Shown here in pieces: positions 2,092 to 10,648 of a stretch of DNA of 10,648 bases. The stretch lies in the IMG/VR virus record IMGVR_UViG_2529292735_000010; one strand, written 5' to 3'. Each line of letters begins with the position of its first letter. Position 1 is the first letter of the stretch. The notes under the pieces were generated by a model. It was not told where the DNA came from and did not search any database. It saw only the letters and a list, made by a program, of their open reading frames with translations. The translations under genes were made by a program, and so were the position numbers. This DNA is from a virus. Its lineage: Duplodnaviria; Heunggongvirae; Uroviricota; Caudoviricetes.

Positions 2092-2719
2092 GGCATTCAC
2101 CCGCGTGGATGAAACCTTTGAGGCTATCCGCGACAGCCTGAATCAGCAGGCCATCAATAACATCGCCAGAAAGCTGGCACAGGATTTACGTCGCGCCCAG
2201 CAGGCACGTATCCGGTCACAGAAAGCGCCGGACGGGACTGCATGGACACCACGCAGACGCCGCGTAACCCGGATACAGGAGCGCATTCGCTTTATCTGGA
2301 ATAACGAAGCACGCACGCTGAAAAACTGGCATCACGACACGGGGAAATACGGGCGAACCATTACCGGGTGGGATGAGGATAAAAACAGTATCCGCACGTT
2401 TTACCGGGATGACATCGACCGTTTTCTGGAAATACGCACCCGGCGCATCAACCAGGACAGCACCAGGCGCGTCCCCATGTTCGTAAAACTGCGCACCGCC
2501 CGCTACCTGAAAGCCCGTGCAGATGCTTCCGGTGTGACGGTGGGTTGCAGCGGCGTGGCCGCACGTATTGCCCGCGTTCATCAGTTCGGTGAGCGCGATC
2601 AGGTTGCGCTGGGCATTTTCACCGATTACCCGGTACGTGAGCTGTTGGGTATCAGTCAGGCAGATGAACGCCTGATTTATAACACGGTGCTGGGCCGGAT
2701 TGCGGAGGCTGTACGGTGA
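2084..2719 (+). CDS. S: Tail completion / virion morphogenesis protein (P2 gpS-like), longer than I recall for gpS
   Basis: ATG 2084 overlaps the R stop (ATGGATAA). The C-terminal region has gpS-like motifs (KLRTARYLKA...ARIARVHQFGERD). Its stop overlaps the V start (GTGA). The ORF track begins at GTG 2075, but I prefer the ATG. Confidence 0.6.
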   Translation: MDKAFTRVDETFEAIRDSLNQQAINNIARKLAQDLRRAQQARIRSQKAPDGTAWTPRRRRVTRIQERIRFIWNNEARTLKNWHHDTGKYGRTITGWDEDKNSIRTFYRDDIDRFLEIRTRRINQDSTRRVPMFVKLRTARYLKARADASGVTVGCSGVAARIARVHQFGERDQVALGIFTDYPVRELLGISQADERLIYNTVLGRIAEAVR

Positions 2720-3297
2720 GCGCAGAACTCATGCGACTGCTGAGCAATATCATCCGCACCGGGATCATCTCTGAAGTTGATGAGAAGTCCTGGTGCGTGC
2801 GCGTTCGCAGCGGCGAACTGGAAACAGGCTGGTTACGCTGGAACACCACGCGCGCGGGAGCCTTCAATGTGTGGCTGCCGCCATCACCAGGCGAACAGGT
2901 GGTAATTGCCTGCATTGGCGGCAACCCGGAAACCGCCATGATAATTGGCAGCCTGTGGAGTGATGCCAGTCCGGCCCCCGGCAAAAGCCTGAAAGAAATC
3001 GTGGTCAGCGCGCCGGATGGCGCGGTGTTCCGCTACGACGCGGACGCAGGCGCACTGAGCGCCAGCGGCATGAAAACGGCCACCCTGCAGGCATCCGTCA
3101 GCGTGACACTGGATACGCCCGTCGTGGAATGCACAAACCTTCTGAAAACAGCCGAGATTGACGTCACAAAAGGGGGAAAGATGAGCGGCAATATCACGCA
3201 CAGCGGCGGCGATTTCACCTCAAACGGCATCACAGTGCATACGCATAAGCACGGTGGCGTTAAAGGTGGCAGCGATTCGACAGGAGGCCCGCAGTGA
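2716..3297 (+). CDS. V: Baseplate assembly / spike protein (P2 gpV-like)
   Basis: 193 aa with gpV-like motifs (IRTGIISEVD..., WLPPSPGEQVVIACIGGNPETAMIIGSLWS, C-terminal HTHKHGGVKGGSDSTGGP). GTG start overlaps the S stop. Confidence 0.8.
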   Translation: MSAELMRLLSNIIRTGIISEVDEKSWCVRVRSGELETGWLRWNTTRAGAFNVWLPPSPGEQVVIACIGGNPETAMIIGSLWSDASPAPGKSLKEIVVSAPDGAVFRYDADAGALSASGMKTATLQASVSVTLDTPVVECTNLLKTAEIDVTKGGKMSGNITHSGGDFTSNGITVHTHKHGGVKGGSDSTGGPQ

Positions 3298-5068: not shown

Positions 5069-6916
5069 ATGAGTACCACAACACGAAAATTTAAAACCGT
5101 TATCACCGATACGGGTGCAAAAAAATTAGCACAGGCAGCCGCGCCAGATGGTAATCCTGTCCGCCTGACACATATGGCCGTGGGTGACGGCGGCGGTACT
5201 TTACCCACGCCAGACAGTAAGCAGACTCGTCTTGTGCATGAGGTGTGGCGACATACTGTTAATCGCGTCTTCCTGGACGCAACACATCAGAACCGCATTA
5301 TTGCGGAGCTGGTTATTCCTCCTGAAACGGGCGGATTCTGGATCCGGGAAATTGGTGTGTTTGATGAGCACGGCGATTTGATCGCGGTGGGCAATACTGC
5401 CGAAAGTTACAAGCCAACCGTTGCCGAAGGGTCCGGACGTGCACAAACATTTCGCACCATTCTGACCGTATCCAGCACTGCCACCGTGGCGCTTACCGTG
5501 GATAACACCATGGTGATGGCCACAGTGGATTACGTGGATGACAAACTGAAAGAGCATGAACAGTCACGACGTCACCCGGACGCCTCACTGACCGCAAGAG
5601 GCTTTGTTCAACTCAGTAGCGACACTAACAGCGTGTCTGAAACACAGGCTGCAACACCAAAGGCGGTAAAGGCAGCATATGACCTTGCTAACGGGAAATA
5701 TACCGCTCAGGACGCCACGACAGCACAAAAAGGGATTGTCCAGCTAAGCAGCGCGACTAACAGCACATCTGAAACGCTTGCCGCGACACCGAAAGCAGTG
5801 AAAGCAGCTAATGACAATGCGAATGGTCGGGTACCTTCTGCCCGTAAGGTGAATGGTAAGGCGCTTTCAGCGGATATTACACTGACGCCGAAAGATATTG
5901 GTACGCTTAACTCAACAACTATGTCATTCAGCGGTGGTGCTGGTTGGTTCAAATTAGCAACGGTAACCATGCCGCAGGCGAGTTCTGTTGTTTCAATTAC
6001 GTTGATTGGTGGCGCGGGATTTAACGTGGGGTCACCTCAACAGGCAGGTATATCTGAACTTGTTTTGCGTGCAGGTAATGGTAATCCGAAGGGGATTACT
6101 GGTGCTTTATGGCAGCGCACATCGACAGGGTTTACAAATTTTGCCTGGGTCAATACATCAGGTGATACTTACGATATTTACGTTGCAATCGGAAATTATG
6201 CGACTGGTGTAAATATTCAATGGGATTATACCAGTAATGCCAGCGTGACGATTCATACGTCACCAGCATATTCTGCTAATAAGCCGGAAGGGTTAACGGA
6301 CGGTACAGTTTATTCACTCTATACGCCATCAGAGCAGTTTTATCCGCCTGGCGCACCAATCCCGTGGCCATCAGATACCGTTCCGTCTGGCTATGCCCTG
6401 ATGCAGGGGCAGACTTTTGACAAATCTGCATACCCGAAACTTGCAGCGGCTTATCCGTCAGGCGTGATCCCTGATATGCGTGGCTGGACGATTAAGGGCA
6501 AACCTGCCAGTGGTCGAGCCGTATTGTCTCAGGAACAGGACGGCATTAAATCGCACACCCACAGCGCCAGCGCATCCAGTACGGATTTGGGGACGAAAAC
6601 CACATCGTCGTTTGATTACGGAACTAAATCCACAAATAACACCGGAGCACATACACACAACTTTGCTTACAACAATACTTCAGCATACGCAGAAACTCCC
6701 GGTACCGGTGGTGGAATGCATGCAACTAACACAAACAAGGCAGCAAGTAATCGCGTATTAAGCGCAGGAGCTCATACTCACACCGTAGCAATAGGTGCGC
6801 ATACACATAAGCTCGCTATTGGTTCGCACACACACACCATTACCATTGCCGCTTATGGCAACGCGGAAAACACCGTAAAAAACATCGCATTTAACTATAT
6901 TGTGAGGCTTGCATAA
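5069..6916 (+). CDS. H: Tail fiber protein (P2 gpH-like N-terminus with a divergent HxH-rich C-terminal receptor-binding region)
   Basis: 615 aa. The N-terminal ~250 aa is gpH-like ([22 protein letters not shown]..., [15 protein letters not shown]...) and includes the characteristic duplicated [20 protein letters not shown] motif. The C-terminal third carries repeated GAHTH/SHTH motifs. Confidence 0.9.
5600..5830 (+). repeat. Two tandem, diverged copies of a ~44-codon coding repeat inside the tail fiber gene
   Basis: Copy 1 (about 5600-5698) encodes [33 protein letters not shown]. Copy 2 (about 5732-5830) encodes [33 protein letters not shown]. The period is about 132 nt. Confidence 0.8.
6550..6840 (+). 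repeat. HxH-motif-rich short coding repeats in the tail fiber C-terminal region
   Basis: The DNA has recurring GCNCAYACNCAYAC-like units encoding SHTHS, GAHTHN, GAHTHT, GAHTHK and SHTHT within about 290 nt. Confidence 0.7.
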
Positions 6917-7515
6917 TGGCATTCAGAATGAGTGAACAACCACGAACCATAAAAATTTATAATCTGCTGGCCGGAACCAATGAATTTATTGGTGAAGGTG
7001 ATGCATACATTCCACCTCATACAGGTCTACCTGCAAATAGTACTGATATTGCTCCGCCAGATATTCCAGCTGGCTTCGTGGCTATTTTCAACAGTGATAA
7101 GACGTCCTGGCATCTCGTTGAAGATCATCGTGGTAAAACGGTTTATGACGTGGCATCAGGGGGCGCGTTATTTATTTCTGAACTTGGTCCATTACCGGAA
7201 AATGTCACCTGGTTATCCCCGGAAGGGGAGTTTCAGAAGTGGAACGGCACAACGTGGGTGAAAGATGCAGAAGCAGAAAAAGTGTTCCGGATACGGGAGG
7301 CGGAAGAAACAAAAAACAGCCTCATGCAGGTAGCCAGTGAGCATATTTCGCCACTTCAAGATGCCGTAGATTTGAATATTGCAACAGAGGAAGAAACATC
7401 GTTACTGGTGGCATGGAAGAAGTATCGAGTGCTGCTGAACCGTGTTGATACATCAAGAGCACCGGATATTGAGTGGCCAGCTCCCCCAGTGGAATCAAGG
7501 AGTAAACAAGCATAA
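6916..7515 (+). CDS. G: Tail fiber assembly chaperone (P2 gpG / Tfa-like)
   Basis: 199 aa. ATG overlaps the H stop (TAATG). The C-terminal region ([32 protein letters not shown]) is typical of Tfa chaperones. It lies immediately downstream of the fiber gene. Confidence 0.85.
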
Positions 7516-7549
7516 AGGCTTTCATTTCAAACCATTGTAGTCCAGTTTT

Positions 7550-8254
7550 TTGTATAGTACCCTGCTCATTTCGGATGACATGTGTGATTTGGAATTTCAG
7601 GGTACCATTATGAATGTTATTTCATCATTAAAACAGCTTAACAGACAGCGAAATATTAAAACAAAAAAGATAAAGACGAAGGCCAGACTGGCATTTCTAA
7701 AAATGCGATACAGAAGGAAAACATCATTACAGCCGGATAGTTATAAAACAGTGTGCATTTTCATGCACATGCAAGCCATTGGTGACGGCATCGTTACCTC
7801 AGGGTTTATTAAACAACTTCAAAAATCCGGTATGGTGGTATATGTGATAGCACCTTCAAGAGTATCATTCCTCTTTACTGATATTGTTGGCGTGGATGCC
7901 TTTATATCTTACGAGAAAAATAAATTTAACGAACTAAAAGCAAAGATAAAAAAACTGAATGTAGATCTTGTTGTTGACTTCTCAAATTTTGATAACACAG
8001 CGATAACCAGATTGCAAACACTACATTTACTTAGACCTAAACACTCTATCTGTTTTAATCATCCTGCCGTAACTATTTTTGATACAAATATAATCGATAA
8101 TCGTTCCATTCACACATCTGAAAGAATGAAAAAAGTTTTATCTTTACTAAAGATAAAAAATAACAATTATGCTGCAGCGCTTAATTTTGACAACAAAATA
8201 TATGAACCAGCAAATATTGTTGCAAATGAATTCAGGAAGAAAAACAAAAATTAG
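7550..8254 (+). CDS. Glycosyltransferase family 9-like (heptosyltransferase-like) protein, N-terminal portion; the reading frame ends at TAG 8252-8254 inside an A-rich tract
   Basis: The segment KTVCIFMHMQAIGDGIVTSGFIKQLQK...VDAFIS...LNVDLVVDF resembles the N-terminal GT9 domain (conserved (A/L)GD motif after the first beta strand, then a hydrophobic D-L-V-(I/V)-D segment). The ORF track start is TTG 7550. ATG 7610, preceded by AGGG, is the more plausible start. Confidence 0.6.
   Translation: MYSTLLISDDMCDLEFQGTIMNVISSLKQLNRQRNIKTKKIKTKARLAFLKMRYRRKTSLQPDSYKTVCIFMHMQAIGDGIVTSGFIKQLQKSGMVVYVIAPSRVSFLFTDIVGVDAFISYEKNKFNELKAKIKKLNVDLVVDFSNFDNTAITRLQTLHLLRPKHSICFNHPAVTIFDTNIIDNRSIHTSERMKKVLSLLKIKNNNYAAALNFDNKIYEPANIVANEFRKKNKN
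7557..7605. promoter_or_regulatory. 8-bp perfect inverted repeat (GTACCCTG ... CAGGGTAC) spanning the putative ribosome-binding site just upstream of ATG 7610
   Basis: GTACCCTG at 7557-7564 and CAGGGTAC at 7598-7605 are separated by a 33 nt spacer. The distal arm overlaps the AGGG candidate Shine-Dalgarno sequence of the island gene. Confidence 0.25.
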
Positions 8255-8367
8255 TTATATTTAACCCTTATGGCTCTCAGAATAGCAGAACCTTATCTGA
8301 TGAACAGATAAACAAAGTACTAGCTTACCTTAATAACCTTAAGGGATATCACACAATAGTTTTTAAT

Positions 8368-8787
8368 ATGGGAAAACAGATTAATCACAATGGATTGGAT
8401 AATGTGTCTCTATCTCCATTTTCTGATGCCGGATGTTCATTTGCATTGGTTCGCCATGCTGATTTTGTTATAACTGTAGATACTGCTATTGTACATTTAG
8501 CCAGTGCATTAAACATTAGACAATACTGTATATATAATAACAGAATGCATGAAGGAAAATTCGAAAATAATATTGTGTGGGGGCCAAACAGCAAATTAGC
8601 GACTCAACTCACCACATCCGAACATCTAAGGTCTGAAGGGGGCGACGATATGCATAAATTCGACATAATGATCTTAATTAATGCTATCAAACAAGATTTG
8701 ACAAACGATATACCGAATTACCACTCGGATTTAGGTTGTAAAAATAGATCCAGAAACCCAGAATTAGAAAGTAGCAATTCTTTATAA
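8368..8787 (+). CDS. Glycosyltransferase family 9-like protein, C-terminal portion (frame open upstream to 8230, overlapping the end of the previous fragment)
   Basis: The frame reads ...KQKLVIFNPYGSQNSRTLSDEQINKVLAYLNNLKGYHTIVFNMGKQ...SPFSDAGCSFALVRHADFVITVDTAIVHLASALNIRQYCIY. This matches the GT9 C-terminal pattern (short NPG(A/S)S-type stretch, then hydrophobic-A-D-hydrophobic-hydrophobic-I-x-x-D-(S/T)-x-x-x-HLA-x-A-L). The frame is open for about 46 codons upstream of the first ATG in AT-rich DNA, which is unlikely by chance. Confidence 0.6.
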   Translation: MGKQINHNGLDNVSLSPFSDAGCSFALVRHADFVITVDTAIVHLASALNIRQYCIYNNRMHEGKFENNIVWGPNSKLATQLTTSEHLRSEGGDDMHKFDIMILINAIKQDLTNDIPNYHSDLGCKNRSRNPELESSNSL

Positions 8788-8840
8788 AGTAGAAACCTCA
8801 ACAGTTTTATCAGGACCTACTATATATTATATAACAACAA

Positions 8841-8874
8841 GCCGCCCATTACCCAATATGAGGGTATTAGCGGC
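8841..8874 (-). terminator. Candidate intrinsic terminator hairpin in the convergent intergenic region (downstream of U on the minus strand)
   Basis: GCCGC(8841-8845)/GCGGC(8870-8874) outer stem and TACCC(8850-8854)/GGGTA(8862-8866) inner stem with a 7 nt loop. On the minus strand the hairpin is followed by TTGTTGTTAT. No clean U-tract follows on the plus strand. Confidence 0.3.
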
Positions 8875-8883
8875 AATGTAAAA

Positions 8884-9378
8884 TCAGAATAGTCCTTTAA
8901 CTGAACTGGCCGCGCTGTTAAGGGATGATGTGACCTTATCTTTGAAGCCGGACAGCATATCACTGAACGATGAGGATTGCAGACGCTCCCGCAAGTCCTC
9001 ATCACAGCGTTCAAGGGTCAGTGAAAATTCTATCTTTTTCGCCTTACCGTAGCGATCAAACTCGGAACGGGTCGTATTCGTTTCAGTCAGTACATACATG
9101 CCGTAAATCTGCCCGACACCATCAATCAAAGGCCAGGGTCGTCCTGTATACGCCTGCGTGGTCAGCAGCGACAGCGACACTTCGCCACCTGTAATTTCAG
9201 GATAAAGCACACCAGAAAGCACGATGCGCTCATCACCTGCACCGATATACTGCCAGCTTGCTGAACGGTTAACGCGTTCATTTTTCACATGCCGCCAGCT
9301 TTTGTTTTGCTGTAACTGCTGATGCGGCAGCGTGCGCAGCTCAAAAACAAACATGCCGTAGATCATCATCATGGCCAT
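8884..9378 (-). CDS. U: Tail protein U (P2 gpU-like)
   Basis: 164 aa minus-strand ORF. The N-terminus (MAMMMIYGMFVFELRTLPHQQLQQNKSWRH) and internal VLSGVLYPEITGG and RPWPLIDGVGQIYGMYV resemble gpU as I recall it. GAGGA lies upstream of the ATG, which is 6 nt downstream of the T stop. Confidence 0.7.
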   Translation of the reverse strand: MAMMMIYGMFVFELRTLPHQQLQQNKSWRHVKNERVNRSASWQYIGAGDERIVLSGVLYPEITGGEVSLSLLTTQAYTGRPWPLIDGVGQIYGMYVLTETNTTRSEFDRYGKAKKIEFSLTLERCDEDLRERLQSSSFSDMLSGFKDKVTSSLNSAASSVKGLF

Positions 9379-9384
9379 GACTCC

Positions 9385-10648
9385 TCAATCTTTATCGTAA
9401 AAACTGCCACGCCCGGCACGAGCGCGCCGTTCCATTTCTGCCCTGACCATTTCACCGACCAGTTTCGCCAGTTCGCGGGGATTCTGCGTAACAACGTTAT
9501 GCAGATGAACATGAATTTCACCGCCAAATCCGGAGGCAACAGGCTCCCGGTTACGGGAAGTTGCAGGAACTGATGCCACTGGCGATCGTATGGCCTCTGC
9601 CACCGGGCGGGAGCTGGCCGCAACAACAGGGACCAGCGCCGGAGGCAGCGGAGCCGGAACCACAGGTGTGATATTAATTGCGGGGGCAGGCTTACTGACC
9701 TGCGCAACCTTCCGCTCCTGCCACTCCCCACGAACAGCCAGTGCGCGGGGCAGGTTCTTAAAGACAATATCGCCGGGGCCAATGCGTTTTTTCGTCTCAT
9801 CAACCAGCTTACCTGTGTTATCAGCAATTTTGCTGAGTCTGCGTAGCGTGCCGGTATTGCTGTCTGTGAGCGGTTTGTTGTCTTTGGGTTTATCACCTCC
9901 GGTGCCATTGCCATTTTCCACAGGCTTCGGCGGATTGATTTTCGCCAGGTCCCCCTGAAGCAAGGCAACCTTGTCCTGAAGAATGGCCGCACGCTGTGCG
10001 TCTTCGATTTTCTTGCGCGCCTTTTCCGCTTCATCCGGAAGGACGCCAAGTTTTTCAAGTATCCACGCCAGCGTATCCAGTAGCATTTTTGCAGGTGTCA
10101 GAACAAGCTGTAACGCACCGCCAAGAACGTTACCGAATATCTCGCCAGCACTGGTACATTTATCCAGCGTTTCCTTGCTGGACTCCATCGGTGACAGCAG
10201 CGATTTAAACCAGTTAAACACCTGGCTGATCCCGCTTCCGATTGCGTCAAAAACAGGACCAAACCGTTCAAAGGTTTCGCGCAACGGGGTCAGCCTTTCC
10301 ATAATCCCGCTGAACACCCCGGCAAAAAATAGCCCTGATGGGATCCCAGTATTTCCAGATAAGTACGGCAGCTCCGGCAAGCGCAGCCACGATAAGACCA
10401 ACCGGACTGAACAGCGCCCCGATAGCGCCTCCCAGTAAAGAAACGGAACCCGTCACCATTCCCCATAGTGCTGGCAGGACCCTGACAGCATTCATTGATC
10501 CGGTCAGGAGAGAAAAACCAAGACGCAGTTTTGCCAGCGGACCAGCAAGCACACCAATAGCCAGCGACAACGAGCCAACCGTTGCAGTCATTGCCAGCAA
10601 CGCACCGCCTGCTATCAGTAGCTGGCGCGTCAGTGCCGGATGGGCCTG
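9385..10648 (-). pseudogene. T: Tail tape measure protein (P2 gpT-like), C-terminal ~420 codons; 5' end outside the window; apparent frameshift in a homopolymer at 10324-10329
   Basis: Two minus-strand ORFs in different frames (10268..10600, open to the window edge, and 9385..10401) overlap at a T6 run (A6 on the + strand, 10324-10329). The upstream part is a glycine/alanine-rich hydrophobic tape-measure-type segment (GAIGALFSPVGLIVAALAGAAVLIWKYWDPIRAIF). The downstream part continues (F)AGVFSGIMERL... with coiled-coil-like and proline-rich regions. Removing one T joins them as ...DPIRAIFAGVFSGIMERL.... Confidence 0.75.

Follow-up and report, generated by a model that had tools for sequence, protein, structure and literature searches.

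A WaaU-like family 9 glycosyltransferase gene adjoining tail-fibre genes in a P88-like Escherichia coli prophage: a candidate for modification of the lipopolysaccharide outer core

The stretch of DNA analysed here (the window) was IMG/VR virus record IMGVR_UViG_2529292735_000010, which an exact-sequence comparison identified as all 10,648 bp of contig AIHM01000045.1 (draft assembly GCA_000250455.2). Its open reading frames and their Pfam matches marked it as late-gene DNA from a prophage of the P2 family. An AT-rich island with a gene for a glycosyltransferase of family 9 (GT9), the subject of this study, separates G, the gene for tail-fibre assembly, from the tail gene U. The G+C content, 0.50-0.62 in most of the phage genes, was lower (0.43-0.49) in G and in the 3' portion of the tail fibre gene H, fell to 0.29-0.37 from ~7500 to 8850 and returned to ~0.50 beyond, the overall phage level being ~0.53. 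The drop in G+C content that a preliminary description of the sequence had placed at 7516-8883 was thus confirmed. However, these limits are the ends of the G and U genes and not the breakpoints of the inserted cassette, which were found by comparison with P88-like prophages that carry other cargo (Table 1).

The substantial coding potential of the island was confined to the plus strand, where, as first described, two open reading frames in different frames are the halves of a single GT9 gene. The upstream-most limit of the open reading frame for the N-terminal part was 7550, with the start codon at 7610, while the C-terminal part was listed as an open reading frame at 8368-8787 (+). The N-terminal part carried a G58-D59 motif, equivalent to G12-D13 of WaaC, and the C-terminal part encoded the NPYGS...R227 element and the VDTAIVH donor-binding motif. 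When the pieces were searched alone, the C-terminal one matched the Pfam GT9 model with 25.8 bits (gathering cut-off 22) and the N-terminal one gave no Pfam GT9 match. A segment of the E. coli strain 165 genome matched the island at 99.7% identity, and there the gene is uninterrupted and codes for a protein of 392 residues (WP_001100987.1) annotated as 'glycosyltransferase family 9 protein'. Pairwise alignment showed that the gene of the window differs from that of strain 165 by the indel and two substitutions only. The length of the intact product agreed with the 390-410 residues that had been estimated for the two halves combined.

The intact protein matched Pfam PF01075 (GT9) over residues 206-312 with 26.9 bits, a small margin above the cut-off of 22. 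The protein family to which it belongs, PHROG 36326, is labelled as of unknown function. A search of 5.8 billion proteins gave 34 clusters at 90% identity from E. coli, Providencia, Orbus and metagenome contigs, and 119 representatives, which grade into general GT9, were obtained at E up to 1e-30 in a full hidden Markov model search. Sequence searches of the PDB, both single-sequence and profile, yielded marginal WaaC matches only, so that a fold search was needed to place the protein. The AlphaFold2 model, built on the family alignment, had a predicted local distance difference test score (pLDDT) of 90.1 and a predicted template modelling score (pTM) of 0.86. It consisted of two Rossmann-like domains, preceded by a long helix (residues 2-33) at the N-terminus and followed by a disordered tail (residues 371-392), and the best Foldseek matches were the GT9 structure 3TOV, WaaC and WaaF. 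The predicted structure is therefore a GT-B fold, closest to the solved GT9 structures. The original assignment as a GT9 enzyme with this fold was upheld by the Pfam score above threshold, the confident model and the GT9 structures among the Foldseek matches.

Residues G58-D59, R227, D291 and H296 were invariant in the 34 family members and aligned with G12-D13, K192 (the lysine of RDDKHW) and the DTGLSH motif of WaaC, positions which we take to be the catalytic and ADP-heptose-binding residues of that enzyme. Because the invariant residues align with the WaaC catalytic residues, the sequence indicates that the intact enzyme is most likely active.

The family profile was compared by hhalign with the four GT9 paralogues of E. 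coli K-12. WaaU matched with a probability of 99.4% and an E value of 8e-22 over 307 columns, and the probability for WaaQ was 92.6%. For WaaC and WaaF the match covered the donor motif only, with 78.7% over 48 columns and 19.3% over 34 columns, respectively. BLASTP against WaaU gave 23% identity with an E value of 1e-17. The WaaU alignment began at WaaU residue 13 and spanned the second half of the N-terminal helix, which is basic. The preliminary description had taken the length of the protein as a sign of the autotransporter heptosyltransferases of the Aah/TibC type. That argument fails, since the extra length is made up of the N-terminal helix, half of which aligns to WaaU, and the disordered tail. 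Thus, of the two roles that had been considered, the Aah/TibC one was rejected, while a role in the lipopolysaccharide (LPS) core is the best-supported function, by virtue of the WaaU profile match and a homologue in the Serratia waa cluster.

The phage backbone was ~96-97% identical to Escherichia phage P88 and its relatives (Xuanwuvirus, Peduoviridae). The first designation of the phage as P2-like therefore holds in a loose sense; the backbone is in fact P88-like (Xuanwuvirus), with an FI-U block that is natively inverted. In P88 the block from the sheath gene to U lies on the strand opposite V-G, so the convergent orientation of G and U characterises the genus and does not reflect a rearrangement. 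The opposite-strand U block is unlike the arrangement in P2. An inversion of the minus-strand U-T block specific to the carriers of the island was considered and rejected, as the orientation is native in P88 and in island-free relatives.

The flanks of the island, 6817-7488 and 8829-9500, matched the acetyltransferase-carrying relatives L070 and L071 by blastn, with no match between them. The final 27 nucleotides of G (7489-7515) already lie inside the variable cassette, and the 55 nucleotides adjoining U are, to judge by their sequence, backbone rather than cassette. A hairpin in this spacer folded at -19.5 kcal/mol (z -2.6) and was followed by UUGUUGUU on the minus strand only; it is likely the terminator of the minus-strand tail operon. 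The G/U junction was occupied by an invertible tail-fibre segment and a DNA invertase in P88, 503458, 520873 and Citrobacter phage PhiSM, and by a gene for a 190-residue hexapeptide-repeat 'serine acetyltransferase' on the minus strand in the prophages of E. coli O26:H11 11368 and strain CRE1540. Of 5426 complete E. coli genomes, 49 had the GT9 cassette. Within complete P88-like prophages the GT9 gene was internal, between G and U; the STEC2018-607 prophage looks intact as a whole, that of strain 165 is degraded. These results bear out both earlier suggestions, that the gene is phage cargo and not flanking chromosome and that the site, which can hold an invertible fibre segment, an acetyltransferase or a GT9 gene, varies among related prophages. 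No match to the island was obtained in 50,697 phage records by blastn in its distant mode, and none of the deposited P88-like phages that match the backbone carries the GT9 cargo. The island is a single-gene cargo cassette at a variable site between the assembly gene and the inverted tail block.

Table 1. Features of the window and of related loci (positions are those of the window unless a locus is named)
Feature	Position	Strand	Remarks
GT9 gene, N-terminal part (frame 2)	7610-8254	+	Residues 1-213; one incorrect residue follows, then a premature TAG
GT9 gene, C-terminal part (frame 1)	8251-8787	+	Residues 215-392; stop TAA 8785-8787
Frameshift site	8246-8250	+	A5 here, A6 in complete genomes; 1-nucleotide deletion
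Leader hairpin	7557-7605	+	Ends 4 nucleotides ahead of the start codon; arms form inverted repeat I9
Cargo cassette	7489-8828		Breakpoints relative to P88-like prophages with other cargo
Tail fibre gene H	5069-6916	+	615 residues; Pfam Phage_tail_fib, Phage_fiber_2, Collar; immediate upstream context
Tail-fibre assembly gene G	6916-7515	+	199 residues; Pfam Caudo_TAP, E 7e-44
Backbone spacer 3' of U	8829-8883	-	Conserved with relatives lacking GT9; hairpin ~8841-8874
Tail gene U	8884-9378	-	Pfam Phage_P2_GpU, E 8e-39; convergent with the cargo gene; orientation as in P88
Lysis genes, R, S, V, W, J, I, H, G (in this order)	V, 2716-3297	+	
U, tape-measure gene	U, 8884-9378	-	
Acetyltransferase cargo or homologue	L070 16823-17395; L071 10033-10605; L004 9167-9733	-	

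The genes that surround homologues of the cargo enzyme bear on its function. A homologue with 55% identity was found in the waa cluster of Serratia marcescens, where the order is waaL, waaQ-like, waaG-like, waaP-like, GT4, GT8, GT8, the homologue, waaA, coaD and mutM. Its position is the place of waaU, at the end of the outer-core genes in K-12. The waa-operon location applies to the Serratia homologue, the gene of the window being prophage cargo instead. In a Citrobacter-like contig the homologue lies between waaL-like and NTP-transferase genes and wzx, in Orbus it adjoins a GT2 gene, a second GT9 gene and two sulfatase-family genes, and in Gilliamella species it is located among GT8, GT9 and GT2 genes. 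The context of a Symbiopectobacterium homologue, amid insertion sequence (IS) elements, was uninformative.

Other homologues recur beside genes for receptor-binding proteins, in three different types of Providencia prophage tail. In Providencia stuartii an E217/PhiTE-like baseplate, a Collar fibre and a tail-fibre assembly gene are followed by the homologue. In P. rettgeri (L065 8001-11977) a Mu-like baseplate, a fibre, an assembly gene and the homologue are followed by a convergent GT2 gene, DinI and an integrase; this arrangement suggests that the prophage ends in a cassette of two glycan-modifying enzymes. In P. alcalifaciens a tail fibre gene and the homologue precede a gene for a hexapeptide acetyltransferase, which shares 41% identity (E 1e-44) with the acetyltransferase found as the other cargo at the E. 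coli G/U site. Since the two alternative E. coli cargos are neighbours in Providencia, it can be argued that they belong to one pool of fibre-linked, surface-glycan-modifying cargo. The homologous gene was AT-rich in every context (G+C content 0.26-0.33).

Taken with the match to WaaU, these contexts somewhat favour the interpretation that the intact GT9 enzyme of the island, a putatively cytoplasmic protein of the WaaU-like branch with a GT-B fold, alters the LPS outer core of the lysogen. Adsorption of PhiSM, a P88-like phage, requires the outer-core GlcIII (PMC6456863), and WaaU adds the terminal HepIV to this same residue (PMC4651636), so that a WaaU-like prophage enzyme is placed to decorate the region to which the phage binds. 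HepIV is also required for O-antigen capping in K-12 (bioRxiv 10.1101/2025.02.09.637341). The proposed sequence of events would be as follows, 1) the enzyme made in the lysogen would use a nucleotide-activated sugar, most probably ADP-heptose, 2) a side-branch residue, most likely heptose, would be added to the LPS outer core, 3) the transfer would take place at the inner face of the inner membrane, ahead of O-antigen ligation and export, 4) the modified core would change the receptor for phages that bind the LPS core, P88-like phages included, and possibly the O-antigen attachment site as well, and 5) the outcome would be a form of lysogenic conversion that affects the core and not the O-antigen. 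The analysis established the fold and family of the enzyme, its conserved catalytic residues, its status as cargo, the variability of the site and the occurrence of homologues in LPS clusters; in this scheme we infer the donor, the acceptor, production of the enzyme by the lysogen and any influence on the adsorption of phages.

The characterised enzyme with which the cargo enzyme can best be compared is K-12 WaaU (formerly RfaK, the putative ADP-heptose:LPS heptosyltransferase IV). Both belong to GT9, with a GT-B fold and GD and VDTAxVH motifs. They differ in that WaaU is encoded in the waa operon whereas the cargo gene is prophage-borne, in the 22-residue disordered C-terminal tail of the cargo enzyme and in sequence, at the level of identity given above. 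Similarity to WaaC and WaaF (2H1H, 1PSW) was limited to the donor motif and similarity to WaaQ was moderate. As the resemblance is confined to the motif or, for WaaQ, moderate, and the NCBIfam scores fall below their cut-offs, the cargo enzyme is not an orthologue of WaaC, WaaF or WaaQ; neither is it one of the Veillonella protein 3TOV. The Aah/TibC enzymes share with it the CAZy family GT9 and a similar length.

In phages of Shigella, Salmonella and Pseudomonas, the glucosylation systems GtrABC and O-acetyltransferases are non-essential prophage cargo that alters the LPS of the lysogen and can bar phages with the same receptor. The GT9 gene resembles these systems as the gene for a putative surface-glycan-modifying enzyme carried as non-essential cargo by a temperate phage. 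However, Gtr systems combine a GT2 enzyme with membrane proteins and modify the O-antigen in the periplasm, while the cargo is a single soluble GT9 protein, predicted to be cytoplasmic and to act on the core. Moreover, the GT9 gene sits by the tail-fibre genes and Gtr-type genes by the integrase. A position downstream of the tail-fibre assembly gene, and a bearing on receptor use or surface modification, are common to the other cargos of the P88-like G/U site and to Z/fun of P2, although the GT9 gene lies on the plus strand, co-directional with H and G, and the acetyltransferase gene on the minus strand.

A hairpin precedes the start codon of the GT9 gene (Table 1). Its predicted stability was -24.1 kcal/mol (z -3.5), a value reached by 1 of 200 shuffled sequences. 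An AGGG in its 3' arm was the only Shine-Dalgarno-like element, and a -10-like TATAGT was present at 7553-7558. The homologue in the P. stuartii prophage has an analogous 13-bp hairpin that overlaps the ATG (L002 ~9957-10004), and compensatory changes were seen between the two (GTACCC/GGGTAC in E. coli, TTACCC/GGGTAA in P. stuartii). The hairpin was absent from three other homologues. The structure may have a regulatory role.

Several results weigh against an LPS core-modifying enzyme that is expressed in the lysogen. The promoter scan upstream of the GT9 gene remained at chance level, with no convincing sigma-70 consensus, and a cassette so rich in AT could be silenced in E. coli. The scores against the NCBIfam equivalogs (RfaQ and heptosyltransferase I) were 23-25 bits, compared with cut-offs of 185-467, and PADLOC gave no family match at E up to 1. 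Characterised enzymes are all of low similarity in sequence, WaaU included, and the GT9 family is not confined to heptose. K-12 carries HepIV and yet is sensitive to PhiSM (PMC6456863); since such a strain is still infected, a WaaU-like addition need not block a P88-like phage. Finally, literature searches on the protein and on prophage-borne GT9 or heptosyltransferase genes found no functional study of a phage-borne GT9 enzyme.

The copy in the window is interrupted, and the nature of the frameshift decides whether this particular gene could make an enzyme. A 77-nucleotide probe that spans the site was searched in complete E. coli genomes, and all 49 that matched had the longer A6 allele, the intact 392-residue protein being annotated in 48 of them. 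The closest complete prophage, that of STEC2018-607 (96.6% identity), served as reference for other indels in the contig. The endolysin gene (M15) had A7 for A6 at ~955, the lysB/lysC region had C5 for C6 at ~1473 and the tape-measure gene had an extra A at ~10331, and each of these accounts for a broken reading frame in the open reading frame list. An extra T was present at ~217, and the tail protein X/holin region was among the genes that are broken. An additional single-base indel relative to the same prophage was noted at ~3642. The segment holds 14 homopolymers of at least 6 nucleotides, three of which were mis-sized in the contig, each breaking a gene, and the contig appears error-prone at homopolymers. 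Five of these 14 long runs are in the AT-rich GT9 gene, which would therefore concentrate such errors. Because A6 occurs in all of the complete genomes and other homopolymers in the contig are mis-sized, the A5 allele is, from these comparisons, quite probably a sequencing artefact of the draft contig, and the initial advice to settle the frame by re-sequencing was apt, the frameshift being most likely an assembly error.

The alternative, that the copy in the window is a real pseudogene in which a genuine 1-nucleotide deletion inactivated the cargo gene, perhaps in a decaying defective prophage, was judged unlikely. A5 is present in the deposited sequence, some of the carriers have degraded prophages (that of strain 165 has a capsid-tail fusion and an IS3 insertion), and the IMG/VR contigs L086, L087 and L090 also have 1-nucleotide deletions in the gene, although unique indels are otherwise few in their flanks, a point in favour of real, recurrent inactivation. 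The IMG/VR deletions fall at two A6 runs, the one at the frameshift site of the window (gene positions 637-642) and a second near the 5' end of the gene (54-59), and leave the A7 run untouched; their recurrence may reflect either systematic sequencing error or mutational hot spots. The other 1-nucleotide indels in the IMG/VR contigs served as an error control that was noisy, with paired natural indel variants. Against a pseudogene, A5 was seen in none of the 49 complete genomes, no premature stop caused by base substitution was seen, and the changes in the endolysin, lysB/lysC and tape-measure genes have the pattern of homopolymer error. The affected IMG/VR contigs, moreover, have low IMG genome identifiers, which presumably mark older drafts. 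If A5 is real, the copy in the window is inactive. Two further ideas were set aside. Partial proteins in the 90% cluster, considered as independent frameshift alleles, proved to be truncations at contig ends, and a programmed frameshift, or phase variation, at the A5/A6 run is unlikely, given that the run is short and that the other length is found in no complete genome.

For an intact enzyme, two functions other than modification of the core as a phage receptor were weighed. Transfer of heptose to protein, as by the Aah/TibC (BAHT type) enzymes, or glycosylation of the phage's own tail fibre, is very improbable. The BAHT enzymes do belong to GT9, 392 residues is near their size and the gene adjoins tail-fibre genes in several phages; nevertheless, the close likeness to TibC, including the conserved metal-binding cysteines, was not found. 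It is also improbable, although less so, that the gene serves anti-phage defence or another non-glycan accessory role, or that it encodes an LPS core enzyme whose benefit is to the fitness of the host (serum, bile, immune evasion or O-antigen ligation). Defence-rich hotspots are a feature of P2-like phages (PMC9122126; PMC13586616), but the lack of a PADLOC match stands against defence, conservation of the GT9 catalytic residues and the homologues in waa clusters indicate a conventional enzyme that builds glycans, and the repeated siting by receptor-binding genes, together with the pairing with GT2 or acetyltransferase genes, fits a receptor role best. As for host fitness, HepIV of K-12 is the attachment point of the O-antigen and its loss alters bile sensitivity (bioRxiv 10.1101/2025.02.09.637341), so that a change in the core could act mainly on host physiology. 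This last variant is compatible with modification of the LPS outer core by the cargo enzyme and is inseparable from it by sequence.

Some observations on the P88-like lineage concern other parts of the prophage. An Rfam match to RF02111 ('IS009'; 187.7 bits, gathering cut-off 117) at 7259-7457 (+) lies wholly within the coding sequence of G and is probably a conserved coding segment that was taken up as a candidate small RNA family. In the P88-like prophage of E. coli O26:H11 11368 a His-Xaa-Ser radical-SAM system (hxsABCD; L070 24563-27960) is located between gene D and ogr, an interval that is a further cargo site of the lineage. Partition genes of the parM type occur in the prophages L001 (8857-11967) and L073 (3090-4365), and the strain 165 prophage adds an HTH/PIN pair between the replication and portal genes. 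The position of these genes corresponds to the P2 hotspot described in PMC9122126.

Prophage-encoded LPS modification is a known kind of system; what would be new is a WaaU-like enzyme that acts on the core in the cytoplasm and is encoded beside the genes for the tail fibre. The function was called undescribed at first, which overstated the case, as the RefSeq name 'glycosyltransferase family 9 protein' and PHROG 36326 exist. Annotations of Pseudomonas prophages list GT9 genes, a mention at the level of annotation only, and the papers on P2/P4 hotspots (PMC9122126, PMC13586616) do not mention glycosyltransferases. A broader and tentative proposal is that WaaU-like GT9 enzymes are mobile 'receptor-editing' cargo, sometimes paired with a GT2 enzyme or a hexapeptide acetyltransferase, which moves by the tail-fibre genes between unrelated myovirus tail modules (P88-like, E217/PhiTE-like and Mu-like) in Enterobacterales. 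Such cargo might rewrite the outer core of the lysogen, and possibly the site where the O-antigen is attached, and so give lysogenic conversion of the core and superinfection exclusion, in a manner unlike the known O-antigen systems.

The practical value of the window itself is lower, as the gene is annotated elsewhere and its split is probably a sequencing error. The LPS core is the receptor of many coliphages, P2- and P88-like phages included, and bears the attachment point of the O-antigen, whereas the known phage-borne modifications of LPS target the O-antigen by way of Gtr systems or acetyltransferases. The gene also offers an experimental way into the WaaU branch of GT9, which is poorly characterised. 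If the enzyme is active, lysogenic conversion would extend to the LPS core, which would help to explain differences in phage susceptibility among E. coli of one nominal core type and would bear on the prediction of host range in phage therapy and on core typing.

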